In this document: piece after piece, positions 9,457 through 36,700 of the stretch
Numbering within the stretch: the stretch's first letter is position 1
Layout of the letters: each line of letters begins with the position of its first letter
Assembly (NCBI GenBank): GCA_045561015.1
Contig: JBJKYO010000055.1
Coordinates: 1,131-65,130 of the forward strand
Length of the DNA: 64,000 nt
Direction of reading: 5' to 3'
Origin: Longimicrobiales bacterium
GTDB taxonomy: Bacteria > Gemmatimonadota > Gemmatimonadetes > Longimicrobiales > Gaopeijiaceae
The notes under the pieces: generated by a model
What the model was told of the DNA's origin: nothing
The model's input: only the letters and a program-made list of their open reading frames with translations
Database searches by the model: none
Translations under genes and position numbers: made by a program

Positions 9457-9542
9457 TATTGCCTCCGAAACAGAAATAGAACCATAAGAACAAGATAACC
9501 TTTCCCTGGTATAATTTCACTTCCAAGAATAGATCAAACAGG

Positions 9543-12020: not shown

Positions 12021-13280
12021 ATGGCAAACTTGACTAGAAGAGCTATGCTTGGGACCTCAGGGGGGCTCATTGCTGGAGGGCTCTTGAAAACCAAAGCAGA
12101 TGCTATCTCTTTTGCAGATAACGAATCCGAAAATACAGTCCAAGATCAAGATCCTACAAAAGTCTTAGGTAGGTTGACTAGTGAAGTGGGCCAAAGAGCT
12201 CCTGAGGAACAACCTCGACGGCTTGTTAGAAACCCCAATGTCTCACACTCGAGTTCATCCAGAACTCCATTGCACCAACTGCAGGGAATCATAACACCAG
12301 CTGACCTTCATTTCGAAAGACATCATGCTGGTATACCAACCATCGCCCCCGACCAATACGAATTGCTGATTCATGGTATGGTTGACCGACCCATGAAATT
12401 CACTTTGAGTGACCTGAAGCGTTTCCCCTCAGTGTCAAAACTGTACTTCATAGAATGTTCTGGTAATGGTGGTTCCTCCTACAACAAAAACGCCTCACGC
12501 GAGGTGGATCCCCAACAGATGGATGGACTAACGAGTACCAGTGAATGGACAGGCGTCCCCTTATCAACACTACTCCAGGAGGTCGGTGTGCAGAAAGGAG
12601 CCACCTGGTTAATGGCTGAAGGAGGAGATGCAGCAGTGATGGCTCGAAGTATACCCATTGAGAAAGCTTGGGACGATGCAATGATAGGTTACGGTCAGAA
12701 TGGAGAAGCTATTAGGCCGGAGCAGGGATATCCCGCAAGGCTTCTTCTACCTGGATGGGAAGGCAACGCTTCCGTCAAATGGATTCGTCGAATAGAAGTT
12801 AAGGACCAACCAACTATGACTCGGGACGAGACATCAAAATACACTGATCCTCTCAAGGACGGCACAGCCAGACAGTTCAGTTTTACCATTGATGCCAAAT
12901 CAGCCATAACCTTCCCTGCCTATCCTTATGCGTTGACTGAACCAGGTTGGTGGGAGATTCAAGGGGTCGCATGGAGTGGCAGAGGGCGCATCACTAAAGT
13001 CGATATAAGCACTGACGGTGGTGAAACCTGGAACGAGTCTAAACTTCATGGGCCTGTGCTTTCCAAATGTCACACCCGGTTTACCTATCCTTGGAATTGG
13101 GATGGGAAGGAAACGGTACTGATGAGTAGAGCAACCGACGAAACAGGCTATGTCCAACCGGCATTGAGTACACTAATGGAGGCCAGAGGTGAAGGCACCT
13201 CCTACCATTACAACAGTATTAGACCCTGGAAAATCGAAGAAGATGGAAGAGTGTACTTCGGTCAAGGAGAGATTTCATGA
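12021..13280 (+). CDS. sulfite-oxidase-family molybdoenzyme, SorA-like sulfite dehydrogenase
   Basis: The ORF track starts at 12006. ATG 12021 has GGGGAG 5 nt upstream and yields MANLTRRAMLGTSGGLIAGG (TAT signal). FIECSGNGG matches the Mo-ligand Cys region (ECAGN-type). An ATGA overlap joins it to the downstream cytochrome c gene. Confidence 0.8.
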   Translation: MANLTRRAMLGTSGGLIAGGLLKTKADAISFADNESENTVQDQDPTKVLGRLTSEVGQRAPEEQPRRLVRNPNVSHSSSSRTPLHQLQGIITPADLHFERHHAGIPTIAPDQYELLIHGMVDRPMKFTLSDLKRFPSVSKLYFIECSGNGGSSYNKNASREVDPQQMDGLTSTSEWTGVPLSTLLQEVGVQKGATWLMAEGGDAAVMARSIPIEKAWDDAMIGYGQNGEAIRPEQGYPARLLLPGWEGNASVKWIRRIEVKDQPTMTRDETSKYTDPLKDGTARQFSFTIDAKSAITFPAYPYALTEPGWWEIQGVAWSGRGRITKVDISTDGGETWNESKLHGPVLSKCHTRFTYPWNWDGKETVLMSRATDETGYVQPALSTLMEARGEGTSYHYNSIRPWKIEEDGRVYFGQGEIS

Positions 13281-13924
13281 CCATGACTCAAACTGACACA
13301 CCCCGATATCGTGATAGAACTACTTTGAATCATAAAATTCCAACCATCTTTTTTGCACTTCTGCTGCTGGGAAATATTGCATGTGCAGATGTCAACACAG
13401 AGCCAAATGGAAATCAGGAAACTCCTGGAGGTAGCTTTAACCTAGGTTCGACAGCCAGCGCTTCCGATATCGCAGCTTGGGACTTAGATATGGACCCTAG
13501 TGGATCGGGCGCCCCAATTGGCAGTGGCTCCGTATCCGAGGGGAAACAGACTTATGACCTAAAATGCGCCAGTTGTCATGGTATAGACGGTGGGGGTACT
13601 CCGCTTGGAGATCAACTGGTAGGACGTGAACCCCTTGAAGGATTCCCATTTGGGCAAGTGAGAGGTCAATACCGGCGTACAGTTGGTAATTATTGGCCGT
13701 ATGCAACGACTCTCTTCGATTACATTATCCGAGCAATGCCAATGAATGCGCCCGGATCACTTACGGCAGACGAAGCCTATGCTGCTTCAGCCTACATTCT
13801 CTATATGAATGATATCATCGATGAGGATGCGGTCATGGATACAGAAAGCCTACCAAAGGTTGTAATGCCAGCAAGGGATCGTTTTGTGATGGACAACCGA
13901 ACTGGCGGTCCAGAAATACGTTAG
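13277..13924 (+). CDS. membrane-anchored or exported mono-haem cytochrome c (SorB-like electron acceptor)
   Basis: One CASCHG haem-c motif with a downstream Met-Pro (AMPMNAPG). N-terminal hydrophobic segment IPTIFFALLLLGNIACA. Start overlaps the SorA-like stop by 4 nt. Confidence 0.75.
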   Translation: MTMTQTDTPRYRDRTTLNHKIPTIFFALLLLGNIACADVNTEPNGNQETPGGSFNLGSTASASDIAAWDLDMDPSGSGAPIGSGSVSEGKQTYDLKCASCHGIDGGGTPLGDQLVGREPLEGFPFGQVRGQYRRTVGNYWPYATTLFDYIIRAMPMNAPGSLTADEAYAASAYILYMNDIIDEDAVMDTESLPKVVMPARDRFVMDNRTGGPEIR

Positions 13925-16772: not shown

Positions 16773-18569
16773 CTAACAGGACTGACAATTGTGATTGTTG
16801 ATGGATCCTAAGCCTTCAAGCAAAGCAATAGCTTCAGGGTATGGCTGTGTGCGCTGGTAAGGGCCATTGGCCATGTCGGCTGTCGTTTGACCCTCCCTAC
16901 TCACCGCCATCACATCGGCACCCTTCTCGACCAAATACTGTATCATGTCTGTATCACCTCTGGACGCAGCATGATGCACAGCAGTATAGCCCTGATAATC
17001 TCTAGCATTTACATCAGCGCCGATTTCTTCGACAAGGTACTTCATGGCATCCATCCAGCCAGCAGGCACATGTCGGTGTGAGTTTGCTGCGAACCCTTGT
17101 CCGTAGCCCACTCCAGAAGCCGCATGAATTGGGTAAACACCAGGCCCTCCCAAGGGAACTACCGGTAGACCAGATTGATCAGATTTCGCGTCTCCATCCC
17201 ACGCTGGGCGTCTGCGGTCTGGCATCCTCTGAGTTGCTACTTTTGGATCGGATCCATAAGAAACCAACATTTTCATAGCTTGTAAATCAACACCATAAGC
17301 TGCCCGCCAGAAAGGTGTGGCCCCTGTCATATTTACCCCTAAAAGACCTCTTCCATACGCCGTGTACCATAAGCGTTTTTTCAATCTTGCATTTGGATCA
17401 GCTCCGCTATCCAAAAACATTTTCATGAGTTCTAAATAACCAATTTCCTGCTGAAGATGGGCGTTTGGCTGCTGATACTGTGTCTTAGGAATCCATTGCT
17501 GATTAATCACAGCATATAACGGAGCGCCTCCAGCCTCATTGGCTAAATTGACATCCGCACCATTCTCCAGCAATTCAACCGCCAAATCGAAATGTCCATT
17601 TATAACAGCTATTAGTAACGGACTTGTTCTCTCAGCGTTTACCTGGTTCACATCTGCACCAGCATCCAACAAGGCTCTGACAGCTGATCTGTGACCCTGC
17701 CTTGCGGCATGCAAAAGAGCCGTCATCCCACCAACCTTTCCTATCTGCTCAGCACTGGTTAAGGGACGAGGTTCTTCTTTTTCCTCTGTTGATCCTTCTT
17801 TTCCTTCAACTGAAATATCGGAATTGAAATCATCGCATGCATAAGTGGTGGGACCACCTTGTTCTATCGTCAGTAACTTACCTCTCCTACCATCCGAACA
17901 GTCTTCCTCTTCCCCTTCCTCCATTGGTGCCGACGAAGATCCAACTGGATTTTCCTGCTTCTTCAGTAATTTGTCTTCAGCAACCATGTCTATTATTTCG
18001 GTCTGGATAGAAAGATCCGCACCCTTATCGGCCAAAATTTTGATGGCTCCCACTCTTCCCAAAGATGCGGCAAAAATTAGAGGAGTTTGTCCTGACTGCA
18101 TTTCTTTGTCATCTATAGAAGCTCCGTGGTCTATGAGTGCTTCAATACTCTTCACATCCCCAGAAGCGGCAGCAAAATGCAGAGAAGTAACCCCCCCGCT
18201 CGACGTTCTTTGATTGGGGTCACTTCCTGCTTTCAACAGACTGACAACCATGGGGGAATGGCCTTCTCTGCTAGCTAGGTGAAGAGGGGTATAAGCCCCC
18301 ATTCGAGTAGTTGCTTCGATACTGGCACCCGCATAAAGTAACATTTCAGCAATGTCTGACTGTCCATTAACAGCAGCCCAATGCAAAGCTGTCATTCCGT
18401 CGCCCTGTGCGGCATTAACGTCTGCACCTTGGTACAGCAGGTTCCGTAATACCTCCACGTCATTGCGCATAGCTGCGTCTGCAACAGGTGACTCAAGAAC
18501 ACCAGCACCCGTAAATACAATCGTCAAAAAGAATGTGGCAACTATACTCGAAAAACTTTTGTTTCTCAT
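16773..18569 (-). CDS. secreted ankyrin-repeat protein, cassette A
   Basis: 598 aa with a signal peptide (FFLTIVFTGAGVLESPVADAA). Many ANK units (G.TALHWAA..G......LL..GA..N). GGGAG SD 5 nt upstream. Starts 17 nt after the DUF1552-A stop. Confidence 0.85.
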   Translation of the reverse strand: MRNKSFSSIVATFFLTIVFTGAGVLESPVADAAMRNDVEVLRNLLYQGADVNAAQGDGMTALHWAAVNGQSDIAEMLLYAGASIEATTRMGAYTPLHLASREGHSPMVVSLLKAGSDPNQRTSSGGVTSLHFAAASGDVKSIEALIDHGASIDDKEMQSGQTPLIFAASLGRVGAIKILADKGADLSIQTEIIDMVAEDKLLKKQENPVGSSSAPMEEGEEEDCSDGRRGKLLTIEQGGPTTYACDDFNSDISVEGKEGSTEEKEEPRPLTSAEQIGKVGGMTALLHAARQGHRSAVRALLDAGADVNQVNAERTSPLLIAVINGHFDLAVELLENGADVNLANEAGGAPLYAVINQQWIPKTQYQQPNAHLQQEIGYLELMKMFLDSGADPNARLKKRLWYTAYGRGLLGVNMTGATPFWRAAYGVDLQAMKMLVSYGSDPKVATQRMPDRRRPAWDGDAKSDQSGLPVVPLGGPGVYPIHAASGVGYGQGFAANSHRHVPAGWMDAMKYLVEEIGADVNARDYQGYTAVHHAASRGDTDMIQYLVEKGADVMAVSREGQTTADMANGPYQRTQPYPEAIALLEGLGSINNHNCQSC

Positions 18570-18586: not shown

Positions 18587-20017
18587 TTAACTACGAGAAC
18601 CTGAATTATTCATTTCCGTCGTTGTCGCACCCATAGATAGAGGGAAAGCACCTGTGCTATCGCCAAAGCTCTCCATATCATCATGGCCCAAGGCATGTAG
18701 TAGACTTAGCATGACGTTAGCCGTAGGTGTCCCATCTGGAGCCTTCAGATGAAGATTCCCTTCAAGTTGCCCGTTGGCATGTCCGGCAAACAAAAGCGGA
18801 ATACGTCTATGGTTATGTACGTTCGGATCTCCCATCGGAGAACCATAAATAACTGCAGATTTATCAAGAAGATTGGAGTCTCCTTCCTGGGTACCCTTTA
18901 GTTTTTCCAAAAGGTGAGGAAGAAGACTTACGTGAAACTCATTCAGTCCAGCAAACTCTAGGATTACTTCTTCTTTGTTTCCATGGTGTGAAGTAGGATG
19001 GAACGGTAAATCGATTCCGCTCTCTGGGTAGACCCTGTTCAACGCATCCCTGGACAGTTTCAGCGAAAAGACTCTAGTCATGTCATTTTGAAAAGCCAAT
19101 GCTTGGAGATCAAACATGAGTTTGACGTGCTCTGAGAATGAATCGGGAACACCTGCCGGAGCTTCTGGCAATTCCCTTGCCTCTCCACTGGCATTTTGTG
19201 CCTCAATCTTTTGGATTCTTCTTTCAAGCTCTCTGACGTTCTCCAAATAGCTCTCTAATCGGATCCTGTCCTCAGGCCCTAAAGCTCTCGTTATTTCACC
19301 CACCTCACCAGCCACCCAATCTAGGATACTGCTATTCGCTCTTCTTCTTTCCGCACGTGCTTTAGGGGTCCCGCCCGCTCCGAAAAGCATATCGAAAGCT
19401 ACTCTGGGATCCCTTATCATTGGAAGGGGTTCGTTGGGAGATGCCCAACTTATTGTGTCAGTATATACACAAGCGTATCCATAAGAACATCCACCAGCTT
19501 GATCTACATTCTCAATACAAAACTGCATCGATGGAATTGGTGTGTCCTGCCCAAAACGGTTCGCAAACATTTGGTCGAGAGACATCCCCACCAACACATC
19601 AGACCCCTCAGTCTGTTTGGGATGCATTTGTGTCAAGAACACAGCACTGGATCGAAAATGATCTCCACCTATTTCGGGGGCTGAAAAAGCATCTGCATTT
19701 CTCATGTCTGTGTTACTGACGATTGTTAGGTAGTCCTGAAACGGTTCCAGAGGCTTTAAAACACTTGGACTTAAGTCGAAATCGCGCCCCTCTTCTGCTG
19801 GAGACCACAGATTCTGAGTTTCTCCCCATTCTGTACACCCTGCCGAACCATGCACAATCTCAATACATATTAATCGAGTCTTGTCGATCTCAGCAGATGA
19901 CTTCGACCAATGGCGCCCAGCTGGCACCATAGCATCGAGCAATGGTAGAGCAACACTGGCTCCTGCTCCACGCAGAAAAGTCCGGCGAGGCATATGTTTT
20001 TGGGTGATAAACTCCAT
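18587..20017 (-). CDS. TAT-exported DUF1552 (HXXSHH) family protein, cassette A
   Basis: Twin-arginine signal MPRRTFLRGAGASVALPLLDAM. Contains an HPTSHH motif. GAAGGAG SD upstream. Starts 24 nt after the DUF1592-A stop. Confidence 0.85.
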   Translation of the reverse strand: MEFITQKHMPRRTFLRGAGASVALPLLDAMVPAGRHWSKSSAEIDKTRLICIEIVHGSAGCTEWGETQNLWSPAEEGRDFDLSPSVLKPLEPFQDYLTIVSNTDMRNADAFSAPEIGGDHFRSSAVFLTQMHPKQTEGSDVLVGMSLDQMFANRFGQDTPIPSMQFCIENVDQAGGCSYGYACVYTDTISWASPNEPLPMIRDPRVAFDMLFGAGGTPKARAERRRANSSILDWVAGEVGEITRALGPEDRIRLESYLENVRELERRIQKIEAQNASGEARELPEAPAGVPDSFSEHVKLMFDLQALAFQNDMTRVFSLKLSRDALNRVYPESGIDLPFHPTSHHGNKEEVILEFAGLNEFHVSLLPHLLEKLKGTQEGDSNLLDKSAVIYGSPMGDPNVHNHRRIPLLFAGHANGQLEGNLHLKAPDGTPTANVMLSLLHALGHDDMESFGDSTGAFPLSMGATTTEMNNSGSRS

Positions 20018-20041: not shown

Positions 20042-22543
20042 CTAATTACTATTATTCTCAACTTCTTCTACAACCGTTTCTGTAGAAGCTTTCATTTGAA
20101 ATGCGTCACTATTAATCACACCTAGAATGAATGAAGACATTCTATACTCATTAGTTTTTGCAGCCTGTGTGATTTTTCTAATTGTCGGTTGGTCGAAGTA
20201 CTCCATCCTACGCCCAGTAGCGTAAGCCATAAGGTTGTTAGCAAATGTCCGAACAAATGGAATAGACTTGTTCAGCAGAGCCGTATGCAAATCAGAGGGA
20301 TTAGCCAAAGGCGTTCCGTCATAGAGCATTCCATTTGTGTCTAGCTCACTGCCATGTTCTCTAATTCTCCAAGTGCCTGTCACATCGAAATTATCCAAGG
20401 CTAGACCGATAGGATCCATGAACTGGTGGCAGGCGTTACATGTTGGATTCGCTCTATGTCTTTCCATCCTCTCTCGCGTTGTCAAAAATCTTCCGTCCTC
20501 TGTACCCTCAGTAGCAAGCAAGTCTGGGACATCCGGCGGAGGTGGCGGAGGTGGCGCATCTAGAAGGACTTCCATCACCCACTTCCCTCGTAAAACAGGA
20601 GAAGTCCTATGAGCCATGGAAGTCAGCATCAGTACACTTCCGTGACCCAGTATCCCACGTCTGTTATCATCGGGATAAGACACCCTGCGAAATGCATTTC
20701 CCGCCACACCAGGAATCCCATAGTGTTGAGCTAAGCGTTCGTTCAAGAATGTGTAGTCAGCGTTAAGTAATTCAAGAATACTCCTGTCTTCACGAACGAT
20801 ATTGTAGAAGAAAAGTTCGGTTTCCCGATACATCGCTTCCGATAAGGTCATATCGAAATATGGATAATCGTACACATTGGGAGAAACTTTTTCCAAGTCT
20901 TGAAGTCTCAACCACTGTGCTGCAAATCTTGTAGCCAAAGCCTCGGCACGCGGGTCACTCAACATCCTTTCTACGTGACCCTGGAGAACTTCTCGATTGG
21001 CAAGATCACCAGTTGAGACATCTTGCAACAACGGAGCGTCTGGCGGTGATCCCCAGAGGAAAAAAGAGAGTCTTGAAGCAAGAGCCAGTTGATCTATCCT
21101 GTATGGTTCTTCCCAGTCGACACCTTCTGGAGCTTCTTCAAACCGGAACACAAAATAAGGACTCGCTAGCATGGCCTGTAAAGCAAGCCTCACTCCTCTT
21201 TCGAAACCCCCTTCCTGAGCCCCTTCCTTATAGAAGCTCATCAAGTCACTAACCTCAGCCTCACTGACTGGACGCCGATAAGCTTCCGAAGAAAGTCGTG
21301 TCACGATATCTCTGGCACACCCTACTTCCTCTTGGAAAGTGGTTGGCCGACAAGTAAAAATGCTTTGTCGGCTAGATGTTTCGGAAACCCCAGTAACATT
21401 GTAAGGACCACTGACCGCCAGATCCCTTAGATGCGGGAGTGTGGTCAACATTTCCTCTGGGAATCCCTCTTGTACCGATCTACCTAGAGGAGCCCTCACT
21501 TCTTCCACTGGACCTTCAAATCTTGGAACGAATGCTGCAGCTATTTTCTTGGGACCAGCGCGAACAAAAATGGGTTCTGTCTCGATTCTAGTACTAGGGG
21601 GATCCGCGTACTCAGCTTCTGAAAGATCAATATCCAGAAGTGCAACTCGTTCACCATCAAAAGAGAGTTCTAGTTGTTCTCCAACAGCTCTTTTCCCCAC
21701 ACTCTGAAACTGGAACCAAAAAGTATATTCACCATCGGCCGGGAAGATATGTTCCGCAGCTACCCCACCCCTACTTCCAAAAGGTGTTCCTTCAACGTGG
21801 ACCATTTGAGAAGCACGTTTCTCCGCACTGTAAACTGTTTCGGTCGGAGTAACTTCACGGTCGCCAATCGCCAATCGACTGATCTCACTGGCCGCGGTCA
21901 GATAGGCCTCCAAAAGTGTTGGAGAAAGCATCTGAACATCTGCTATGTTATCGAAATTTGCACTTTTTGTGTCCAAAGGAAGATATTCCCCAACATCTAT
22001 TTGAAGCCCTAACAAATTTTTTATGGACTCGGTATACTCGGCCCGATTCAGACGCTGGAAAGTTCGACCACCAGGATTTGGATTCATTACGGCTTCCCGA
22101 TCCATTCTGGTCTCCAGCTCTTCTACCAGAGCTAACAAGGTATCTGGACTAGGCCTCGGCATGCCTGGTGGAGGCATCATACCAGCCCTCAATTTCCGAA
22201 TCATTTTCTCTGCTGTCTCAGGTCTGTTCGGAGCATTTTCAACTTCAAATCCAGCCAAAGAAAGATTTCCTGTCATCATCGCGTCGTTGTGACATACCTG
22301 ACAGTAAGTCTGAACGACTTCGGTCAATGTAGCAGCTTCGATTTCAAGACTGCCTGTAGAATGTGTCCCACCCAACTCAGATGAAACGTCCGATTCTGTC
22401 CTCTGTACATCAGAAATATCAGATTTAGACTGTACTAATACAGCCCCTTCGGTGTCTACCGAACGAGCATCAGCAACCTGTCCGACCATCACTAGAATTA
22501 GCCCGAAAACTATAGCCAAAACAGCAGTAACGGATCTTTTCAT
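20042..22543 (-). CDS. exported protein with two CxxCH motifs, PSCyt/PSD (DUF1585/1587/1588/1592/1595) family, cassette A
   Basis: 833 aa with Sec signal MKRSVTAVLAIVFGLILVMVGQVADA. CQVCH is encoded at 22289..22303. A PPPPPPPPDVP tract precedes CNACHQFMDPIG, with CNACH encoded at 20426..20440. Confidence 0.85.
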   Translation of the reverse strand: MKRSVTAVLAIVFGLILVMVGQVADARSVDTEGAVLVQSKSDISDVQRTESDVSSELGGTHSTGSLEIEAATLTEVVQTYCQVCHNDAMMTGNLSLAGFEVENAPNRPETAEKMIRKLRAGMMPPPGMPRPSPDTLLALVEELETRMDREAVMNPNPGGRTFQRLNRAEYTESIKNLLGLQIDVGEYLPLDTKSANFDNIADVQMLSPTLLEAYLTAASEISRLAIGDREVTPTETVYSAEKRASQMVHVEGTPFGSRGGVAAEHIFPADGEYTFWFQFQSVGKRAVGEQLELSFDGERVALLDIDLSEAEYADPPSTRIETEPIFVRAGPKKIAAAFVPRFEGPVEEVRAPLGRSVQEGFPEEMLTTLPHLRDLAVSGPYNVTGVSETSSRQSIFTCRPTTFQEEVGCARDIVTRLSSEAYRRPVSEAEVSDLMSFYKEGAQEGGFERGVRLALQAMLASPYFVFRFEEAPEGVDWEEPYRIDQLALASRLSFFLWGSPPDAPLLQDVSTGDLANREVLQGHVERMLSDPRAEALATRFAAQWLRLQDLEKVSPNVYDYPYFDMTLSEAMYRETELFFYNIVREDRSILELLNADYTFLNERLAQHYGIPGVAGNAFRRVSYPDDNRRGILGHGSVLMLTSMAHRTSPVLRGKWVMEVLLDAPPPPPPPDVPDLLATEGTEDGRFLTTRERMERHRANPTCNACHQFMDPIGLALDNFDVTGTWRIREHGSELDTNGMLYDGTPLANPSDLHTALLNKSIPFVRTFANNLMAYATGRRMEYFDQPTIRKITQAAKTNEYRMSSFILGVINSDAFQMKASTETVVEEVENNSN

Positions 22544-22720
22544 CTAAAATCTCCCTATTGACTTGTGTGTCAACGAATTACCCGAAAGGAAGCCAAATTT
22601 CTGCCCCGATTTCTGATCACCCAACAAGTCCAAGCTCAAACAGGAACCACTCCACCATGAAAACTAGCATGCTCACGCCATCCTAGCCAGGATAAAGCAA
22701 CTCCCAAACTGAGCTTTGGG
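22071..22720. repeat. 650-bp near-identical duplicate, copy 1 (partner 29625..30274)
   Basis: My base-by-base comparison found only 2 mismatches (22115, 22116), at a constant offset of 7554 bp. It covers codons 1 to about 158 of the DUF1592-type gene plus 177 bp upstream. Confidence 0.95.
22677..22700 (-). promoter_or_regulatory. conserved palindrome-containing motif gccatcctaSccaggataaaRcaa
   Basis: ATCCT-N4-AGGAT core. The same 24-mer occurs at 30231..30254, and a 22/24 match occurs at 35079..35102. All three are intergenic. Confidence 0.3.
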
Positions 22721-22733
22721 AGGGGGGATTTGA

Positions 22734-24158
22734 TCAATATGGTAGAAAATAAAGTGCCGCAGCTAAAAACGGGAATAGCAAAATCATCATCGTTATCCCA
22801 TATCCAAACATATCCCTCGCCTTAAGTCCGGTAATCGCTAACAAGGGTATCGCCCAGAACGGATTCAACAAATTGGTGTGCGCATCTCCCACAGCATAAG
22901 CAGCTATAGTTTGACCATGCGGTATGCCAAGCTCTGATCCTGCAAGCAACATAGGACCTCCAACTATAGCCCATTCACCTCCGGCAGACGGAACGAATAC
23001 GTTCAGCACTCCACCTGTAAGCCACGCTGTCACAGCGAAGTTTTCTTCCGTAGCGATGGAGAGCAAAGCTTCGGTCATACTGTCCACCAAACCAGTTCCA
23101 GTCATAATCCCAATAATTCCAGCATAGAAGGGGAACTGCAGTATTACACCAGCGCTCCCTTTCACAGCATCATTAAATTCTTGCTCATATTTTGCTGGAC
23201 TCAAATACAAAACCATACCGATCATGATGAAACCGAAATTGAAAACATTCAGATCTAGAGCACCTAGGCCGTCTTTGACAAAAGCTCCCACAAAGAGTGC
23301 AATACCCGTTACAGCAACGATGCCGCCCAGCAATTTAGAATTATCCAGCCGGTCGGAGGGTGTTAACCTCTTCTCTTCCTTATTATCTAAACTACTTCGA
23401 TGACTATCTAACTCCATGTAGCGCTCTATACCTCTGCAATTAGCTGCTGGAGGAGCAAGTAGGTACATCATTAAAGATGCATAGGCCATAGAAAGAACCG
23501 TTAACAGTAATGGGTAGGAATGGAAAACCCATTCTGTAGCCGGAATCACCCTGTCTACAATGCCCTGCAACATAAACACATTACCGTCAGTAGCCTGCAA
23601 AAGACCTGCAGAACTTGATAGGCCCCAACCCCAAGTGAGACTCATACCCATGTAGCCAGCTACAGCTATAAGTGGGTAGTGCACTGCCATACCTTTTTCC
23701 GCAGCTGCCTTCCCCATTTCTCTTGCAAGAATAGCACCAAAAATCAGTCCCAATCCCCACGAGATCCAACCCACAATCATCGATCCGATCCCTACAAGAA
23801 CGACAGCCTGTCGACCATTTTGGGGTAACGATACCAGTCGTTTGATTCCCGAGAGCACTGTGGGGTGATAGGCTACTACAAATCCCGTCACTAATATAAT
23901 CACCATTTGCATGGCAAATTGAAGTAAATTCCAGAAACCTCCGTACCAAGCAAGTGCTATATCTACAGGATTTGAACCTTCTGACAGAAAAGCTGCCAAA
24001 CCTGCTACATAGGTAAGTATGATCGCAAAGACAAATGGACTCGGCATCCATCTTTCGACCCGATCAGCTATCGCCTCTCCAAACCGCTGAACCCACGTTA
24101 GCTGCGGATCGGTATGATTACCTTGGTCGTTCTGCTGCTCCAATGCTTCAAATTCCAT
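22734..24158 (-). CDS. AtoE-family short-chain fatty acid / carboxylate transporter
   Basis: 474-aa polytopic protein. WYGGFWNLLQFAMQMVIILVTGFVVA resembles E. coli AtoE WGDGFWNLLAFGMQMALIIVTGHALA as I recall it. Its start overlaps the ankyrin-B stop by 11 nt. Confidence 0.8.
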   Translation of the reverse strand: MEFEALEQQNDQGNHTDPQLTWVQRFGEAIADRVERWMPSPFVFAIILTYVAGLAAFLSEGSNPVDIALAWYGGFWNLLQFAMQMVIILVTGFVVAYHPTVLSGIKRLVSLPQNGRQAVVLVGIGSMIVGWISWGLGLIFGAILAREMGKAAAEKGMAVHYPLIAVAGYMGMSLTWGWGLSSSAGLLQATDGNVFMLQGIVDRVIPATEWVFHSYPLLLTVLSMAYASLMMYLLAPPAANCRGIERYMELDSHRSSLDNKEEKRLTPSDRLDNSKLLGGIVAVTGIALFVGAFVKDGLGALDLNVFNFGFIMIGMVLYLSPAKYEQEFNDAVKGSAGVILQFPFYAGIIGIMTGTGLVDSMTEALLSIATEENFAVTAWLTGGVLNVFVPSAGGEWAIVGGPMLLAGSELGIPHGQTIAAYAVGDAHTNLLNPFWAIPLLAITGLKARDMFGYGITMMILLFPFLAAALYFLPY

Positions 24159-26175
24159 CGAAATTTTCAGTTCCTGGTCTTAAAACAGAACTGTTTGGAA
24201 GCTCATCATCGTCAACAGGAGGCTTGTTGGGTGATTCCTCTTCCTCAGTAGTCACCCTCCACGGATCTATCTCACCAGCCCTTGGACATGAATCTCCAGT
24301 ATCCAAAAAATGAGTATGGAGACATTCCAAAGTAGATCCCAAATCCTGTAACAGTTCCACTGTCTCGGGAAATGCTACTCTAGTGAAAAAACCTGCCCGA
24401 CCGCCTCGCGCCATATCTGCTGTCGATTGACCCAGTCGCGTTATCACCTTTACATCACCACCTTGTGAGACCAAGTATTCGATCAGTTCATTATCACCCC
24501 TTGAAGCGGCATAATGCATCGGTGTGTACCCCCAGGAATCTAGGGTATTTACATCTATTCCATGTTCTTCAACCAAATATTTTACAGCAGGTATGAAGCT
24601 CCCGGGAACGGTTCTGATGCTGAATGATCCGAGACCAGTAAAACCTCCACCTGCAGCAGCATGAATGGGGTAGGCATTAAAAGCATTCTTCGGGATATAC
24701 GGCAGTCCAGAATCTTCTTGTTGCCTTCCATCCTGCTGCCGTCTTTCTCTCATTTCCGGAGCTGGCCAAGCGGTCGGTATGTTAGGGTCAGCCCCATACT
24801 CCGACATCATTGCCATCGCTTCGACATCCTGAGCGTACGCAGCACGCCAAAAAGGAGTGGCGCCCCTTAGATCCGTCCCGATTTTAGTGAGTCCATATTC
24901 CCAATACCAAAGATGAGTATTAAGACTGACATTCGGATCAGCTCCCGCCTCTAACAAAGCACTAAGTAGCTCCAGGTATTCCGTTTCCTGCATATCCTGA
25001 GCTCTTGGTTGCGGGTAATTAGATTTCGGTGCCCACTGGGTTTGCAGAACTGCAAACAAAGGATTCGAACCATCAGTATTCGCTGACAGGTTAGGATCCG
25101 CACCCTCTTCTACCAAGATCATCGCCAAATCAAACTGTCCATTGAGAGCCGCTATCAAAAGAGGGCTTGTCTCGTCACCCCCACTGACCTGGTCGATATC
25201 TGCCCCCCCTTCTATAAGACTCATAGCTACTTCTGTATTGCCTTCTCTTGCTGCATGCAGCAAGGCAGTCATCCCACCCGTCTTTCCTACCAATGTTTCA
25301 CGATATGGCGGTCTTGGAAGATCAGGCCCTCCTGGATAGTCTGGACGATAACTGATCAAATTTTCTGGAAGATAATCACGGTAAGGTTCTCCAGATTTCA
25401 AAAACTCTCGTTGCGCCTGAATAGCAGCCTGTACCTCAGCAACACTGGGTTCTTTGTTCCCACTAGCACTATTTGTATTTACGTAATCCCCACTTGCATC
25501 CATTACTCGGCTATTATTGATATACTCGGAGAGTTCATTCCTCAAAAAACGACTTGCCTGCTGATCTGCCAATACATGTTGGAGTACATCTACAATCACC
25601 GTGGAAACGTTCGGATCCGCGCCATGAGCCAAAAGCAACTCAGCTGACTCAGTCCTATTCTTAGCCGCAGCGAACATCAGTGGGGTTTGGCCTGCTGAGG
25701 ATTCCCTAGCGTTCGGATCCGCGCCATGAGCCAAAAGCAACTCAACTGCCGCGCCACCGCCTACGACTTGTGCTGCCAAATGCAAGGCTGTGGCAAAGCT
25801 ACTAGATGTGACTGCATCCACATCCGCCCCTGCTTCCAGTAATTTCCCAACAACGACATAGTGTGCTTTTCCGCTTGCCAAATGAAGGGGAGTATATTCG
25901 CCAATTCTAGTTGTTGGATTCACTTCAGCCTGAGCAGCCAAAAGCAACTCAACGATCCTTTCGTGACCTGATTGAGCAGCAATGTGAAGTGGTGTCAAAC
26001 CATCTCCAGTCACCTCATTCACATCTGCACCACCCTCTATCAGAGCCATAACAGCCTCAACATCGGCCAATCTCGTCGCCTCAATCAAAGGCGAATCGGA
26101 AGCCGTCGTCCATCCCAAAAACAGTGCAGAAAAGACGAAAACGCTCGCAAAGCGGATGTTTCTTCCAATGTTCAT
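24148..26175 (-). CDS. secreted ankyrin-repeat protein, cassette B
   Basis: The ORF track starts at GTG 26178. ATG 26175 gives MNIGRNIRFASVFVFSALFLGWTTA (signal). It overlaps the DUF1552-B stop by 1 nt (TGATG). Architecture matches the cassette A ankyrin, plus an acidic C-terminal tail. Confidence 0.85.
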   Translation of the reverse strand: MNIGRNIRFASVFVFSALFLGWTTASDSPLIEATRLADVEAVMALIEGGADVNEVTGDGLTPLHIAAQSGHERIVELLLAAQAEVNPTTRIGEYTPLHLASGKAHYVVVGKLLEAGADVDAVTSSSFATALHLAAQVVGGGAAVELLLAHGADPNARESSAGQTPLMFAAAKNRTESAELLLAHGADPNVSTVIVDVLQHVLADQQASRFLRNELSEYINNSRVMDASGDYVNTNSASGNKEPSVAEVQAAIQAQREFLKSGEPYRDYLPENLISYRPDYPGGPDLPRPPYRETLVGKTGGMTALLHAAREGNTEVAMSLIEGGADIDQVSGGDETSPLLIAALNGQFDLAMILVEEGADPNLSANTDGSNPLFAVLQTQWAPKSNYPQPRAQDMQETEYLELLSALLEAGADPNVSLNTHLWYWEYGLTKIGTDLRGATPFWRAAYAQDVEAMAMMSEYGADPNIPTAWPAPEMRERRQQDGRQQEDSGLPYIPKNAFNAYPIHAAAGGGFTGLGSFSIRTVPGSFIPAVKYLVEEHGIDVNTLDSWGYTPMHYAASRGDNELIEYLVSQGGDVKVITRLGQSTADMARGGRAGFFTRVAFPETVELLQDLGSTLECLHTHFLDTGDSCPRAGEIDPWRVTTEEEESPNKPPVDDDELPNSSVLRPGTENFDGI
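25609..25744. repeat. intragenic 34-nt exact direct repeat, two copies 102 nt apart
   Basis: gttcggatccgcgccatgagccaaaagcaactca occurs at 25609..25642 and 25711..25744. On the minus strand both encode ELLLAHGADPN of adjacent ankyrin units. Confidence 0.85.
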
Positions 26176-27596
26176 CACTGAGTTCCCCCCGTTGACGTCA
26201 CTCCTCGTGGAGCCGTCAAAACCAAACTGCCGTCACTATCTCCGAAACTTTCCATGTCGTGGCCTATACCCTGCATTAGCGTAACAAAGGCATTGGCCAT
26301 CGGTGTTCCTTCAGGGGCTCCAATATGAACACCCCCTTCCAGGGCACCATTTGCACCTCCCATAAGGAGTAGTGGACATCTCCGGTGGTTATGTAAGTTT
26401 GGGTCTCCCATAGGAGAACCCCAGACGATAGCAGTTTTATCTAGCAAGGAACCGTCCCCATCCATAGTATTCTTCATTTTTTCTAAGAAATACGCGACAG
26501 ACCCTAAGCGGTAGGTATTGATCTTGTGGAAATCCATAATGTCATCGGCAATATTACCATGATGTGAGGCTCCGTGGATAGACTTAGTAGTTCCACTCTT
26601 CGGGAAGGTCCTATTAGACTGATCAAAGCCTGTTTTAAAGCTGATCACTCGAGTCATATCTGTCTGTAAAGCCAGAACCTGAAGGTCAAACATGAGCTGC
26701 ATATGCTCTTCCCAAGAATCTGGAATTCCTGATGGAGCTTCTGGCATCTCACGCTCTTCCCCACTTACATTTCGGGCTTCCATCAGCTGGATTCTGCGCT
26801 CGATCTCACGTACATGCTGTAAATATTCATCCATGGCAAGTCTGTCCGCTGCCCCTAGAGATGTTCTCAGTCGAGCGACTTCGGTAACGATCCAATCCAG
26901 CATGCTCTGATCTGTCCGTCTCCTTTCACTTCTATCTTTTTCTGAATCTCCAGCTCCAAACAGTCTTTCAAACACAGCTCTCGGTTCTCTGATAGCAGGA
27001 AGAGGTTGGTTAGGAGAAGACCAAGCCAAAGAAGTGGTATAAGCACAATGATAATTGTAGGCACAACCACCACCGCGATCTATCTCTTCTACACAGAGCT
27101 CGAGAGACGGTAGAACCGTGTCCTGCCCGAATCTCTGTGCATGTACCTGATCCAAAGACGTGCCAAGGAAGATGTCTGATCCCTGAGTTTGCTTAGGATG
27201 AGCCTGAGTTAAGAACACGGCCGTCGAACGATCGTGGTCACCTCCGATTTCTTCAACTCTATAAGCTTCAGCCATACGACAATCGGTGGAACTCACGATG
27301 GTAAGATAATCTCTGTAAGCTTCGAGTGGTTTCAACTGACTATCAGCTTCCAAAGTAAAATCCCTACCTGTTTCTGCTGGAGCAAAAAGATGTCTTTCAT
27401 CCCCCCAATCACTTCCTCCTGCACAACCCATTGATTCTTCGATACATACCATTCGCGTTTGCTTTGCTTCCACCGAACTATCCTTCCATGGACGCCCAGC
27501 TGGAACCATAGCATCCAAGAAAGGTAGTGCTATACCAGCACCCATACCGCCGACAAAAGTTCTTCGTGAAAGATGTTTACCTGTGATGAATTCCAT
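26175..27596 (-). CDS. TAT-exported DUF1552 (HXXSHH) family protein, cassette B
   Basis: Twin-arginine signal LSRRTFVGGMGAGIALPFLDAM. Contains an HGASHH motif. Its start overlaps the DUF1592-B stop by 1 nt (TAATG). Confidence 0.85.
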   Translation of the reverse strand: MEFITGKHLSRRTFVGGMGAGIALPFLDAMVPAGRPWKDSSVEAKQTRMVCIEESMGCAGGSDWGDERHLFAPAETGRDFTLEADSQLKPLEAYRDYLTIVSSTDCRMAEAYRVEEIGGDHDRSTAVFLTQAHPKQTQGSDIFLGTSLDQVHAQRFGQDTVLPSLELCVEEIDRGGGCAYNYHCAYTTSLAWSSPNQPLPAIREPRAVFERLFGAGDSEKDRSERRRTDQSMLDWIVTEVARLRTSLGAADRLAMDEYLQHVREIERRIQLMEARNVSGEEREMPEAPSGIPDSWEEHMQLMFDLQVLALQTDMTRVISFKTGFDQSNRTFPKSGTTKSIHGASHHGNIADDIMDFHKINTYRLGSVAYFLEKMKNTMDGDGSLLDKTAIVWGSPMGDPNLHNHRRCPLLLMGGANGALEGGVHIGAPEGTPMANAFVTLMQGIGHDMESFGDSDGSLVLTAPRGVTSTGGTQ

Positions 27597-30097
27597 TATT
27601 TATACTCCTCGTTCAAATCCGCGACTGACATAGGAACCTGCATCATCTGGAATGGACTGCTATTCACCACTCCCAAAATGAAAGAGGACATACTATAGTC
27701 ATCCACTTCAGCTTCTCTGACAATTTTTCGCACCGTTGGCTGATCAAAATATTCAATCCGTCTACCCATCGCATAAGCCAACAGGTTGGCTGTAAAACTA
27801 CGCATGATAGGAATTGGCCTCTTTGCAACAACTTCATTTAGATCCATCGGAGTATTAAGAGACGTCCCATCATAATACGTTCCCGCAGTATCTAATTCTC
27901 TACCGTATTCTCTCATTCTCCAGCTACCTGTCACATCGAAATTATCCAGGGCTAGACCGATAGGATCCATGAACTGGTGGCAGGCGTTACACGTTGGATT
28001 CGCCCTGTGTCTCTCCAATCTCTCTCGAGTTGTAAGGAATCTCCCGTCTTCAGTACCTTCAGTCGCATCTAGGAAGGGTACATCTGGTGGTGGTGGTGGT
28101 GGTGGTGAACCCATAATAACTTCCATCACCCACTTTCCTCGCAACACAGGTGAAGTTCTGTTGGACATCGAGGTCAACATAAGAACACTTCCGTGCCCGA
28201 GCAGGCCCCTGCGGGTCTCATCTGTATAATTGACCCGTTGAAATTCATCGCCCACGATTCCATCTATTCCATAGTGTTCAGCGAGCCTCTGATTGACAAA
28301 TGTGTAGTCTGCTGAAACCATCTCCAGCACACTCCTGTCCTCCCTTATCAAATTCTCGAAAAACATCTGTGTTTCTCGAATCATATCTTCTTTTAATTGT
28401 CCTGTAAAATCAGGATATAAGTAGGGCTCTGGTTCATTTTTGCCAGCTTCCTGCAATCGCAACCATTGCGAGGCAAAACTCGTAGCCAAATTCTGAGAAC
28501 GCGGATCCGAGAGCATCCTTAAAACCTGGCTTTCTAAGACTTTCGGATCAGACAGTTTTCCTTCGTTGGCCAACTCTCTCAACTGATCGTCGGGACCCGA
28601 ACCCCATATGAAAAATGATATACGTGAGGCTAAATCGCTGTCGTTCAGGCGATAGAGCTGCCCTTCATAGGCATTCTCTGGCTGTTCCTCAAACCTAAAC
28701 AGGAACGAAGGATTAGCCAGAATACTCTGCAATCCAGTCCTAACACCTACTTCAAACCCAGATTCTTTTGCAGCTCTATCGTAAAATTCCATTGGTCCAG
28801 CAAGGTCTTCTTCTGTTATTGTCCGTCGATATGCTTGGGCAGCGATCCGTGAAATGATCTGCTCCGCACATTCATACTCTTCATTCTCCGTATCTGGATA
28901 GCAAGAAAAAACCTTTTCCCTACTTGCTGTTTTGGATACTGGCCCAGAACTGACAGGACCAGTGATCATCAGATCAGCTAAATGCGGAAGAGCGGTAATG
29001 CCATAGTTAGCCCACTGCTGCGCATCCTCGCCCCCTACAAACGACCATTTAAATGGACTTAGACGATCCTCGTAAGGCCCCTCTATCCGTCTCACAAACG
29101 CTGCTGCAACCTGATGTTGACCAGCAGAGACAAAGATGGGATCAGTTCGAATGTCTACAGTTTTATCACCATTATGTTCGAGTGCGAGCTGAGCCACCCC
29201 CACTCCGTCAATCGAAATATCCAGATCCTGCCCAGACAATCCTTTACCAAAAAGAGTTTCTATCGAAATGACATACTCTCCGTCTGTAGGGAAATCATGC
29301 CTGACTACCATACCTCCTCTTGTACCAAAAGGAGTGCCCTCCAAATGATCCCATGAATGTTGAGAAACATGTATAGGGTTAGTGTACTTCGAAGAAACAG
29401 ACAAAGCCTCTGGATTTCCTACTGCAATGCGACTAACCTCCGCCGCCGCCCTCAAGTACGATTCTAAGAGAGTAGTAGAAAGTCCTTGCGCAGCGGAAAG
29501 GTTATTAAAATTTCCTAAGAAAGTGTCTTCTGGAAGCCAGCGACTCGCGTCTATTTCCAACTCAAGAAGCTGACGTACACTTTTTTCGTATTCAGCTCTA
29601 GTTAATCTCTGGAATCTTCTGGATCCAGGATTTGGATTCATTACGGCTTCCCGATCCACCCTGGTCTCCAGCTCTTCTACCAGAGCTAACAAGGTATCTG
29701 GACTAGGCCTCGGCATGCCTGGTGGAGGCATCATACCAGCCCTCAATTTCCGAATCATTTTCTCTGCTGTCTCAGGTCTGTTCGGAGCATTTTCAACTTC
29801 AAATCCAGCCAAAGAAAGATTTCCTGTCATCATCGCGTCGTTGTGACATACCTGACAGTAAGTCTGAACGACTTCGGTCAATGTAGCAGCTTCGATTTCA
29901 AGACTGCCTGTAGAATGTGTCCCACCCAACTCAGATGAAACGTCCGATTCTGTCCTCTGTACATCAGAAATATCAGATTTAGACTGTACTAATACAGCCC
30001 CTTCGGTGTCTACCGAACGAGCATCAGCAACCTGTCCGACCATCACTAGAATTAGCCCGAAAACTATAGCCAAAACAGCAGTAACGGATCTTTTCAT
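27596..30097 (-). CDS. exported protein with two CxxCH motifs, PSCyt/PSD (DUF1592-type) family, cassette B
   Basis: 833 aa. The first ~158 aa match copy A except for M147V. CQVCH and CNACHQFMDPIG are both present, along with a poly-Pro tract. Confidence 0.85.
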   Translation of the reverse strand: MKRSVTAVLAIVFGLILVMVGQVADARSVDTEGAVLVQSKSDISDVQRTESDVSSELGGTHSTGSLEIEAATLTEVVQTYCQVCHNDAMMTGNLSLAGFEVENAPNRPETAEKMIRKLRAGMMPPPGMPRPSPDTLLALVEELETRVDREAVMNPNPGSRRFQRLTRAEYEKSVRQLLELEIDASRWLPEDTFLGNFNNLSAAQGLSTTLLESYLRAAAEVSRIAVGNPEALSVSSKYTNPIHVSQHSWDHLEGTPFGTRGGMVVRHDFPTDGEYVISIETLFGKGLSGQDLDISIDGVGVAQLALEHNGDKTVDIRTDPIFVSAGQHQVAAAFVRRIEGPYEDRLSPFKWSFVGGEDAQQWANYGITALPHLADLMITGPVSSGPVSKTASREKVFSCYPDTENEEYECAEQIISRIAAQAYRRTITEEDLAGPMEFYDRAAKESGFEVGVRTGLQSILANPSFLFRFEEQPENAYEGQLYRLNDSDLASRISFFIWGSGPDDQLRELANEGKLSDPKVLESQVLRMLSDPRSQNLATSFASQWLRLQEAGKNEPEPYLYPDFTGQLKEDMIRETQMFFENLIREDRSVLEMVSADYTFVNQRLAEHYGIDGIVGDEFQRVNYTDETRRGLLGHGSVLMLTSMSNRTSPVLRGKWVMEVIMGSPPPPPPPDVPFLDATEGTEDGRFLTTRERLERHRANPTCNACHQFMDPIGLALDNFDVTGSWRMREYGRELDTAGTYYDGTSLNTPMDLNEVVAKRPIPIMRSFTANLLAYAMGRRIEYFDQPTVRKIVREAEVDDYSMSSFILGVVNSSPFQMMQVPMSVADLNEEYK
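28085..28105. repeat. (TGG)7 microsatellite, (CCA)7 on the coding strand
   Basis: Seven perfect trinucleotide units encode the poly-Pro tract of DUF1592-B. The same tract in copy A uses mixed codons (ggcggaggtggcggaggtgg). Confidence 0.9.
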
Positions 30098-30274
30098 CTA
30101 AAATCTCCCTATTGACTTGTGTGTCAACGAATTACCCGAAAGGAAGCCAAATTTCTGCCCCGATTTCTGATCACCCAACAAGTCCAAGCTCAAACAGGAA
30201 CCACTCCACCATGAAAACTAGCATGCTCACGCCATCCTAGCCAGGATAAAGCAACTCCCAAACTGAGCTTTGGG
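29625..30274. repeat. 650-bp near-identical duplicate, copy 2 (partner 22071..22720)
   Basis: See copy 1. Identity ends exactly at a cccaaa-N6-tttggg hairpin (30257..30274). Confidence 0.95.
30231..30254 (-). promoter_or_regulatory. conserved palindrome-containing motif, second copy
   Basis: Identical to 22677..22700 and lies inside the 650-bp duplicate. Confidence 0.3.
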
Positions 30275-30376
30275 GACCCTTGTGGACCCAACCAAAAGAC
30301 TCGGGTACAAGTCGATAGCATACAAAAGATTAGGAATCCATTGTGAGCCAAACACTCTATGACCAGAAGATCCGGA

Positions 30377-31771
30377 CTAACTAATCAACCGCAGGTGCTG
30401 TCTCACCTTTTCCATGTACTTTTGAAAGAAGTGATATTGTATATTGTTCATGTCTATCTCACGACCTTGGATATAAGACTGTTCAATATTACTGGTCATG
30501 TCCAAAGGCGTACCTGTAGTAATTAGTAAAGTGGCCTGCTTCCCAGGTTCTAGGGATCCAACCCTGTCACTTATTCCCATGAACTCTGCAGCGTTTATGG
30601 TCACCGCCCTTAGAGCTTCTTCTTCAGGAAGTCCGAAAGCCACAGCAACACCTGCTTCCCATGGAAGTCGGTCCGAATACAAGGACCCTGAGCCACCCGA
30701 TATAGCGAACTTTACACCTGCTGTGTAAAGTCGCGCTGGCATACTGTATGCTCCGTCATATCCCTCATAATCTCGACCGGGTGCAGCCATAGTTGAGGTT
30801 AAAATTACCGGAATATCTTCAGCCACTAATCTATCCGACACGTGGATAGCATCAGCCCCACCGCGAATCACTATTCGCAAGCCTTCCTTTTGAGCCCAAG
30901 TAATTGCATCGTTGATTTGCCCAGCACCGTCAGCTGAGATCACTACAGGAATGTCCCCATCTAGAGCTGGGATCATCGCTGCATAACGTGAATCCGTTCG
31001 CATTTCCATACCAGCCACCGCAGCATCACGATAAGCTCTTGCTTCCGCAAAAAAATCATCGAGCTGCTGGATCTGTTCACCGTAAGTCGGGGGAGGCTCC
31101 TGTGGATTCGGACCAAAGCCACGTCCTCTTCCTCTGCCAGGATTTGGGTTTGGCCAGTTCACATTTAATGCCGCCGCGGATTCAAGAGACATTTCCTCCC
31201 AATCCCATCCCTCTAAACTCATTGCTGATGACATACCCGAAATCAGGCCACCCTCTGGTGTCGTCAGAGTCACAAGGACTCCAGCTGCACGAGTCGTACC
31301 TATATGACGACTCTCTGCATTGACTGCAACTTCAGCCCTGACATTGGGATTAAAGTCGCCCAGCTCGTTGACATCACTTGATACGCCAACAGCTCCGATT
31401 TCACTTATTCCTACTGTGCTATAGGCATCGATTAGTCCTGGATAGATGTGCTTCCCAGAGACGTCTATAACCTTAGTCCCACTAGGCAGGGTTATGTCCG
31501 TTCCAACCGCGCTAATCAAACCATTTTCCATTAAGATGGTACCGTTTTCAATCACTCCGGCTGTAACGGTATGGATGGTAGCCCCACTTAATGCCACTGG
31601 TTCCGATTGCGGAGGGACGGTCATTCGCACCTGTCCCATAGCGGCAGTCGGTGACAACATGATGACAACCCAGGTTAATGAACTCACTGCCAACATGGTA
31701 GCAGCGACAGTACGAACCATCTCTACATAGTTTTTCATATTTCCTCTTATAGTCGTCACATTCATAGTCAT
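30377..31771 (-). CDS. COG1228-type amidohydrolase-fold protein with a degenerate metal motif
   Basis: 464 aa with a signal/TM segment. Amidohydrolase-like N-terminus (IHTVTAGVIENGTILMENGLISAVG). The strand-1 motif reads PGLIDAYSTVG instead of HxH. Contains the loop PNPNPGRGRGRGFGPNPQ (31100..31153). Starts 2 nt after the stop of the upstream 1014-aa gene. Confidence 0.8.
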   Translation of the reverse strand: MTMNVTTIRGNMKNYVEMVRTVAATMLAVSSLTWVVIMLSPTAAMGQVRMTVPPQSEPVALSGATIHTVTAGVIENGTILMENGLISAVGTDITLPSGTKVIDVSGKHIYPGLIDAYSTVGISEIGAVGVSSDVNELGDFNPNVRAEVAVNAESRHIGTTRAAGVLVTLTTPEGGLISGMSSAMSLEGWDWEEMSLESAAALNVNWPNPNPGRGRGRGFGPNPQEPPPTYGEQIQQLDDFFAEARAYRDAAVAGMEMRTDSRYAAMIPALDGDIPVVISADGAGQINDAITWAQKEGLRIVIRGGADAIHVSDRLVAEDIPVILTSTMAAPGRDYEGYDGAYSMPARLYTAGVKFAISGGSGSLYSDRLPWEAGVAVAFGLPEEEALRAVTINAAEFMGISDRVGSLEPGKQATLLITTGTPLDMTSNIEQSYIQGREIDMNNIQYHFFQKYMEKVRQHLRLIS

Positions 31772-31773
31772 AA

Positions 31774-36680: not shown

Positions 36681-36700
36681 TTCTTCTATTCCTTCTTCAT

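Follow-up and report, generated by a model that had tools for sequence, protein, structure and literature searches.

A near-identical 5' block in two otherwise divergent cytochrome cassettes of a Longimicrobiales bacterium, probably maintained by repeated gene conversion

A stretch of 64,000 nucleotides (nt) from a Longimicrobiales bacterium (contig JBJKYO010000055.1; hereafter the window, or W, the whole of which was analyzed) contains two paralogous cytochrome cassettes, A and B. Their cytochrome genes were found to begin with a 650-nt block that is almost identical in the two copies. Both cassettes lie on the minus strand and, according to profile matches, are ordered cytochrome, DUF1552 protein, ankyrin protein. 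Contigs and loci from other assemblies are denoted by L-numbers. The genes and the two copies of the block are as follows.

22071..22720, minus strand: homogenised block, copy A, consisting of a leader of 177 nt (22544-22720) and codons 1-158 of gene A
29625..30274, minus strand: homogenised block, copy B, consisting of the same leader and codons 1-158 of gene B
20042..22543, minus strand: gene A, an 833-aa cytochrome of PSD3-PSD5-PSD4-PSCyt3-PSD2 architecture (DUF1592 family)
27596..30097, minus strand: gene B, 833 aa, same architecture as gene A, of the B subfamily throughout
18587..20017, minus strand: DUF1552 (HXXSHH) partner of gene A, with an N-terminal RR motif, RRTFLRG, read from its translation
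26175-27596, minus strand: DUF1552 counterpart in cassette B, not homogenised with the A partner
16773..18569, minus strand: ankyrin-repeat protein of cassette A, showing no homogenisation with the one in cassette B
24148-26178, minus strand: ankyrin-repeat protein of cassette B, counterpart of 16773..18569
22734..24158, minus strand: short-chain fatty acid (SCFA) transporter gene, the last gene of the B unit

The 158 codons within the block encode a signal peptide, a linker and a c-type cytochrome domain. A first-pass annotation of the window had placed 177 upstream bases, the Shine-Dalgarno sequence, the signal peptide, the first CxxCH motif and about 158 codons in the shared segment, and this content is borne out by coordinates and translations. 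Direct comparison of 22071-22720 with 29625-30274 (650 nt each) yielded two mismatches at adjacent bases. The same number had been counted in the annotation, but at 22115-22116, which is off by ten; the mismatches are at 22105 and 22106. Base 22106 is the third base of codon 146, where the change is synonymous. Base 22105 is the first base of codon 147 (22103..22105, minus strand), which reads ATG (Met) in A and GTG (Val) at its partner site in B (29657-29659), in agreement with the M147V replacement reported earlier. From 22107 to 22720 the copies are identical over an unbroken 614 nt, a run with a chance probability of ~1e-138 at the 59% background, and they are arranged as direct repeats 7554 nt apart.

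Global alignment of cassette A with cassette B in 100-nt windows gave 98-100% identity within the block and 40-65% elsewhere, rising outside the block to 75-88% only in the conserved C-terminal CxxCH domain. Identity in the flanks past both block edges falls to ~50-60%. The drop in similarity 3' of the block, already remarked upon in the annotation, was reproduced by the sliding-window comparison and by the synonymous comparison, in which Nei-Gojobori (NG86) synonymous divergence (dS) was 0.02 across codons 1-158 and the proportion of synonymous differences (pS) thereafter was 0.78, i.e. saturated. Amino acids stay conserved across the inner edge (GGRTFQRLNRAEY in A, GSRRFQRLTRAEY in B; pattern GxRxFQRLxRAEY) while dS jumps, which identifies the inner edge as a recombination boundary instead of a shift in protein constraint. 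An identity bump of 78% between 20298-20597 and 27849-28148 was also considered as homogenisation and was rejected, as it reflects protein conservation (nonsynonymous divergence, dN, 0.1-0.2; dS 1.1-1.9) without any within-genome excess. No third copy or other context of the block was found in the window, and a scan of metagenome contigs returned only the A and B contexts.

Orthologous loci in relatives were compared, and the near-identical 5' block was found in them rather than uniform divergence. Gene bodies group by paralogue, with identities of 77-96% for A-A, 77-98% for B-B and 59% for A-B in every combination. Copies of the block group by genome, with A-B identities of 99.1-99.8% within a genome, as listed below.

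Block, A versus B within W: 99.7%
Block, A versus B within L085: 99.8%
Block, A versus B within L088: 99.2%
Block, A versus B within L091: 99.1%
Block, A versus B within L092: 99.7%
Block, W versus L085 or L088: 94%
Block, W versus L091: 74%

Divergence of the block between lineages equals orthologue divergence, and the non-coding leader is 98-100% identical within genomes and ~61-65% identical between clades. Between W and L091, the block contains 177 lineage-specific sites common to both paralogues versus 2 paralogue-specific sites, and the rest of the gene contains 44 and 379, respectively. No within-genome A-B excess was observed anywhere outside the block. Furthermore, the edges are kept to within a few bases over ~25% divergence, the inner edge at coding nt 473-475 across lineages and the outer edge at a hairpin, 4 nt further out in the L091 clade. 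Body orthology in the adjacent parts of the same genes indicates that duplication or divergence predates speciation, and homogenisation postdates each split, so that at least four independent episodes are needed (W, L085, L088 and L091 lineages). The annotation had proposed recent gene conversion of the promoter and the N-terminal haem module; conversion is upheld by these results, whereas a single recent event is not, the process being recurrent and old.

Another exchange may have taken place in the lineage of L088 and L087. There the A body is only 83% identical to that of the window and the B body 95%, as if a more distant allele had taken the place of cassette A. A breakpoint near the inner edge would fit the additional A/B differences of this lineage at coding nt 447-457.

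The two genes had been described as diverged paralogues, and diverged they are, but they are not simple local duplicates: they represent two old subfamilies, with a B-type head on A. Proteins of the B type were found at 73-82% identity in further lineages, among them Pseudohongiella chromosomes, which carry complete B-type cytochrome-DUF1552-ankyrin cassettes without A, and the nearest outgroups of gene A are ~70% identical. The cytochrome domain of the head (residues 69-158) is 82-84% identical to B outgroups and 73% to A outgroups, compared with reference levels of 80% among B outgroups and 70.5% between A and B outgroups. Column bootstraps placed the head nearer to the B outgroups 999 times out of 1000, and the split between A outgroups and the head plus B outgroups was recovered in 196 of 200 neighbour-joining bootstraps. 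Strictly diagnostic residues were found at only two positions, both B-type, and the distance and bootstrap tests were therefore relied upon. The leader motifs and hairpin region are also present, as in the window, in a B-only relative (L055). The B-type affinity of the head makes gene A a chimera of a B-type leader and head with an A-type body. The inner junction, immediately preceded by the family-invariant NPNPG motif, is plausibly the homologous crossover point of the founding event.

The distribution of the B-type cassette as a whole (27596-30097 on to 24148) is a separate observation. Its proteins are 73-86% identical to those of cassettes in genomes labelled Gammaproteobacteria (L034, L052, L055 and L074, including complete Pseudohongiella chromosomes), which suggests cross-phylum horizontal transfer of the B-type cassette.

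Codon 147 is the sole non-synonymous difference within the block. In W, L085, L088, L091 and L092 alike, all A copies carry A (Met) at coding nt 439 and all B copies carry G (Val). Codon 147 is separated from the inner edge by 33 nt that have likewise evolved in concert, with five sites differing between W and L091 and two between W and L085, all of them common to A and B. The neighbouring synonymous site 438 varies (AGA-GTG in the B copies of L085 and L088; AGG-ATG in the A copy of L088). Residues at position 147 among database proteins were distributed as follows.

A-clade variants: Met 20, Val 2
B-clade variants: Val 3, Ile 1
B outgroups: Val 14, Ile 20
A outgroups: Ile 15

Judged by this distribution, Met147 is the derived state of the chimeric A copy. 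Rare codon-147 convertants were represented by P0012 and P0016. Over 96% of conversion tracts at the tuf genes of Salmonella are contiguous (PMC5485169), and given the persistence of codon 147 amid conversion, the simplest explanation would be that conversion at this codon is opposed by selection or back-mutation. Codon 147 (ATG or GTG, both possible start codons) is also preceded by GGAG with a 6-nt spacer (22103-22117, minus strand; GGAGACCAGAATG), and an internal start there, bypassing the signal peptide and haem domain, is conceivable.

The leader contains a set of candidate regulatory features, listed here from the outer edge inwards.

22701..22722, minus strand: terminator-like hairpin at the outer edge, with an 8-bp stem in the A context, just past the SCFA transporter stop codon
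22660..22690 (copy B 30214-30244), minus strand: leader motif CTGGCTAGGATGGC..GAG.ATGCTAG.TTT, conserved across clades
22558..22573 (copy B 30112-30127), minus strand: palindrome TTGAC-N6-GTCAA, conserved across clades, just upstream of the Shine-Dalgarno sequence
22551-22556, minus strand: Shine-Dalgarno sequence AGGGAG, downstream of the palindrome

The CTGGCTAGGATGGC..GAG.ATGCTAG.TTT motif is a candidate promoter or operator. The hairpin CCCAAA-N6-TTTGGG, which had been noted at the outer boundary, is present at both copies (22703-22720 and 30257-30274), with a 6-bp stem in the B context, but its folding energy was not significant relative to shuffled sequence. The hairpin was also considered as a mark of A-to-B polarity, an idea that was dropped once the hairpin region proved to be present in front of a B-only relative too. 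Scanning the leader against Rfam gave no match, a sigma-70 consensus scan found no promoter-like site in the leader (the sole hit lay inside coding sequence), and the 201-nt leader folded no better than shuffles (z = -0.78).

Taken together, it is highly likely that the 650-nt block is a case of segmental concerted evolution by repeated gene conversion, maintained after a B-type head replaced that of A. The phylogeny shows that, in an ancestor of this Longimicrobiales clade, a B-type leader and gene head replaced the counterpart in gene A. The segment transferred then comprises the hairpin region, the promoter/operator motifs, the ribosome-binding site, the signal peptide and the cytochrome domain, and stops in the loop that follows NPNPG, at codon 158. 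Thereafter, as the comparisons show, the heads were repeatedly recopied; the mechanism deduced for this is non-reciprocal homologous recombination, presumably RecA-mediated and during break or gap repair. In bacteria, divergent sequence blocks conversion tracts, which are contiguous (PMC5485169). The edges may stay fixed through heteroduplex extension aborting in flanks that are only ~55-59% identical, and the island would then be self-perpetuating. Both cassettes would keep one regulatory region, export signal and haem-entry domain, with bodies and partners staying different, and Met147/Val147 would survive within the tract most simply by selection removing convertants. The annotation had further held that conversion imposes identical regulation and export on both cassettes, which stands as a consequence of conversion and, at most, as a possible cause of it.

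The direct repeats could also delete or re-insert the 7.55-kb B unit. Four single-cassette contigs (L005, L007, L087 and L093) run from the B upstream flank through the block into gene A and contain no B body, DUF1552-B, ankyrin-B or SCFA transporter; the crossover of L093 maps to the leader, between -162 and -86. The four represent either genuine repeat-mediated 7.55-kb deletions or assembler shortcuts through the repeat.

Several points weigh against repeated gene conversion as set out here. The locus of ANT-84 (L009) is a tandem pair in which head identity reaches only 84-86% and the leaders, conserved motifs apart, are unrelated, so that homogenisation is not universal. The codon-147 difference amid concerted flanks is awkward for simple contiguous tracts and calls for selection, back-mutation or tracts of very short length. 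Both RecA dependence and non-reciprocity are steps that we infer. Finally, the exact identity in the window may be partly assembler-imposed, since short-read bubbles between near-identical copies merge; an A-B block identity of ~99% or more in the window is nonetheless secure.

The ANT-84 locus (JAPKDG010000011.1, block loci 2272-2922 and 9824-10475) has a further peculiarity: its A head is 99% identical to the L091 head and its A body only 87%, a pattern that suggests either recombination between lineages into the head or a chimeric contig. Similar head homogenisation was absent from 80 other Longimicrobiales/Pseudomonadales loci, bar one different case. This is L056, a Longimicrobiales chromosome (OZ252109.1) with a 1441-nt, 100% identical direct repeat (2292-3732 and 12426-13866) that spans nearly all of the DUF1552 gene in two cassettes separated by 10 kb, with sharp edges and unrelated flanks. 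It is a second, independent case of segmental homogenisation in the cassette family, in the partner gene. A sponge-associated metagenome-assembled genome (MAG), L060, has a 317-nt exact tandem duplication (9198-9514 and 9511-9827) just upstream of a PSCyt gene.

A refinement of repeated conversion, rather than an alternative to it, adds selection for homogeneity, in which a common promoter/operator, export signal and redox-entry domain are favoured and function sets the edges. The inner edge lies at a structural domain boundary (loop 154-162, before PSD3), the outer edge encloses the entire conserved leader, both edges are kept over ~25% divergence, and selection is evidently at work inside the tract, at codon 147. 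However, a neutral self-limiting tract predicts equally stable edges, the inner edge also lies at the invariant NPNPG, the likely founding crossover point, and ANT-84 apparently tolerates a 14-16% head difference and different leaders. Selected homogeneity is therefore regarded as possible but rather unlikely, and the same tentative standing is given to a specific example of it, that both cassettes dock to one electron donor. Somewhat more doubtful still is a broader proposal, in which the head would be a selectively kept common module for two different bodies, the repeats a recombination switch for the B unit, and residue 147 matched to the body.

Other assemblies of the window's population were ~99.7% identical to it. 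Scaffold L001 contains both block copies. In L002 a gap of 100 Ns interrupts the B copy, which is entered by block sequence from both unique flanks, and contigs L003 (A) and L004 (B) start exactly at the outer edge of the block. Both ends of a 7653-nt contig (L095) lie inside the block, implying a period of 7554 nt. On all four sides, unique flanks were found to read into the block. The tandem pair is present in relatives (L085/86, L088, L090-92, L009 and L008+L012) from at least four species-level lineages, and many independent assemblies, made from different samples with different assemblers, reproduce both junction pairs. The record name of L091 (FRAM_RAS_F4_...) matches the PacBio HiFi/metaFlye project of Fram Strait mooring F4 RAS, and on the strength of that name L091 is taken to belong to it. 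The metagenomes of that project were assembled with metaFlye from PacBio HiFi reads of ~6 kb (PMC11790911). L091 retains five or six A/B differences within the block, and an independent short-read contig (L093) has the A-copy state at four of these sites, indicating that the copies were not merged in L091.

The possibility that a collapsed or chimeric repeat gave the two genes a 5' sequence not truly common to them, which the annotation had offered as its alternative, draws on the inability of short-read assemblers to place the interior of a 614-nt exact repeat, as seen in the L002 gap and the L003/L004 edge starts, and on the four contigs that fuse the B upstream flank straight to gene A. Contig breaks at repeat edges are, however, the expected product of a true repeat longer than the k-mer. 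The reproduction of both junction pairs in independent assemblies of at least four species-level lineages (among them L001, L085/86, L088 and L090-92), the entry of unique flanks from all four sides, and the few copy-specific differences kept by L091, likely a HiFi long-read assembly, make an artefact very improbable. A population single-nucleotide polymorphism at 22196/29750 is G/G in the window and A/A in L001, with A in the A copy of L002 and the B copy of L004 and G in the A copy of L003. Its same state in both copies reflects either very recent conversion or a repeat consensus from pooled reads.

A single old transfer followed by strong purifying selection, holding both heads unchanged without ongoing conversion, would suit a head that encodes a haem-binding domain and regulatory motifs conserved across clades. 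Nevertheless, the head diverges between lineages as fast as the bodies (74-77% identity between W and L091; leader ~61-65%), which excludes purifying selection as the cause, while the copies remain at least 99% identical within every genome, including at synonymous and non-coding sites. Moreover, constraint cannot yield 177 lineage-specific changes common to both copies, and this explanation is considered extremely unlikely. Just as improbable is the independent insertion of a promoter-carrying mobile element in front of each gene, as the hairpin at one end and the sharpness of both edges might suggest, given that the block exists in two copies in the window and only in the A and B contexts in the metagenome contig scan, includes, in frame, 158 codons of a domain that is native to the B subfamily, and has its leader already in place in B-only relatives.

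Pfam matches to PSD3, PSD5, PSD4, PSCyt3 and PSD2 were all above gathering thresholds, with a DUF1552 gene adjacent. An N-terminal Cytochrome_CBB3 match (residues 70-140) scored 26.4 bits, just under the 27-bit threshold. The CxxCH motifs C81-H85 and C702-H706 are invariant, as is, across 62 family members, a run of seven prolines in the PSCyt3 region (P664-P670; 20534-20554 in A, matching site in B). The RRTFLRG motif of DUF1552-A is of the twin-arginine type. The AlphaFold2 model of gene A (pLDDT 72, pTM 0.74) has a signal helix and a disordered linker, and its cytochrome helices extend to residue 153. In this model the inner end of the block falls in loop 154-162, between the last cytochrome helix (133-153) and PSD3, and a predicted beta-sandwich at 234-385 bears a weak resemblance to CBM35/CBM6 modules, which may serve as a lead. 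The DUF1552 model was poor (pLDDT 57), and its weak match to sulfatase/alkaline-phosphatase-superfamily folds is likewise a possible lead. No PDB sequence relatives of gene A or the DUF1552 protein were found.

The SCFA transporter gene ends 14 nt ahead of block copy A and overlaps the ankyrin-B gene by 11 nt (24148-24158), which suggests translational coupling; cassette A has no transporter counterpart. Upstream of block B, the spacer 30275-30331 (minus strand) translates to NLLYAIDLYPSLLVGSTRV, which looks like a relic of the C-terminus of an M20 peptidase (NLWYAIDLYASLLTMPSTLF, gene 35118-36728), and in the L091 clade M20 lies directly upstream of B. Two amidohydrolase genes (30377-34818) thus appear to have been inserted in the window's clade. 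Codon usage and G+C content at third codon positions (GC3) are alike in A, B and their neighbours and are uninformative on recent horizontal acquisition of one cassette. The organism belongs to a marine Gemmatimonadota (Longimicrobiales) population, and its named relatives are marine Gemmatimonadota/Longimicrobiales MAGs.

The underlying mechanism is textbook and of a known kind. The tufA/tufB genes of Salmonella enterica (Paulsson, Hughes et al. 2017, PMC5485169) likewise undergo intragenomic, non-reciprocal homogenisation of two copies, with contiguous tracts ending at divergent sequence. In tuf, however, homogenisation extends over the entire gene, the two copies are inverted and separated by 762 kb, and the process has been measured experimentally (PMC5485169), whereas here homogenisation covers only the leader and 158 codons of direct copies 7.55 kb apart, in genes otherwise 59% identical, and is drawn from comparisons alone. 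The babA/babB and homA/homB genes of Helicobacter pylori, as related in PMC2795765 (citing Pride & Blaser 2002), show the same mosaic, in which one segment groups by strain and another by paralogue or allele. By that account, the segment there is the 3' part of adhesin genes at separate loci in a pathogen, with a link to antigenic variation, and the signature holds across strains. Here, by contrast, the bacterium is marine and free-living, the segment consists of the 5' regulatory region and the haem domain of its periplasmic cytochrome cassettes, and the signature is kept across species. Gene A also resembles the chimeras produced by paralogue recombination in Escherichia coli evolution experiments, as outlined in PMC13626634, in being a head-and-body chimera, and the contigs joining the B flank to gene A resemble the deletion products outlined there. 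Unlike in those experiments, as far as that outline extends, both parent-type genes persist side by side here and the chimeric junction is ancient and conserved. The same domain architecture with a conserved DUF1552-type neighbour has been described for PSCyt3/PSD ('Planctomycete-specific cytochrome') genes by He et al. 2017 (PMC5615132), who cover their occurrence in Verrucomicrobia, state the function of the genes and their conserved neighbour to be unknown, and make no mention of conversion or shared heads.

What sets this locus apart is the homogenisation of a 5' regulatory region together with a whole domain, the cross-species edges, the chimeric gene A and one conversion-resistant codon. 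It is an unusually clean natural case of segmental concerted evolution in an uncultured marine phylum, seen from metagenomes alone. There is also a practical consequence, as intragenomic repeats of 600-700 bp break or mis-join short-read metagenome assemblies, affecting MAG gene-content calls at such loci. The two cassettes are probably co-regulated and have their redox-entry domain in common, and co-regulated cassettes of this type would provide a handle on the widespread uncharacterised PSCyt/DUF1552 systems.

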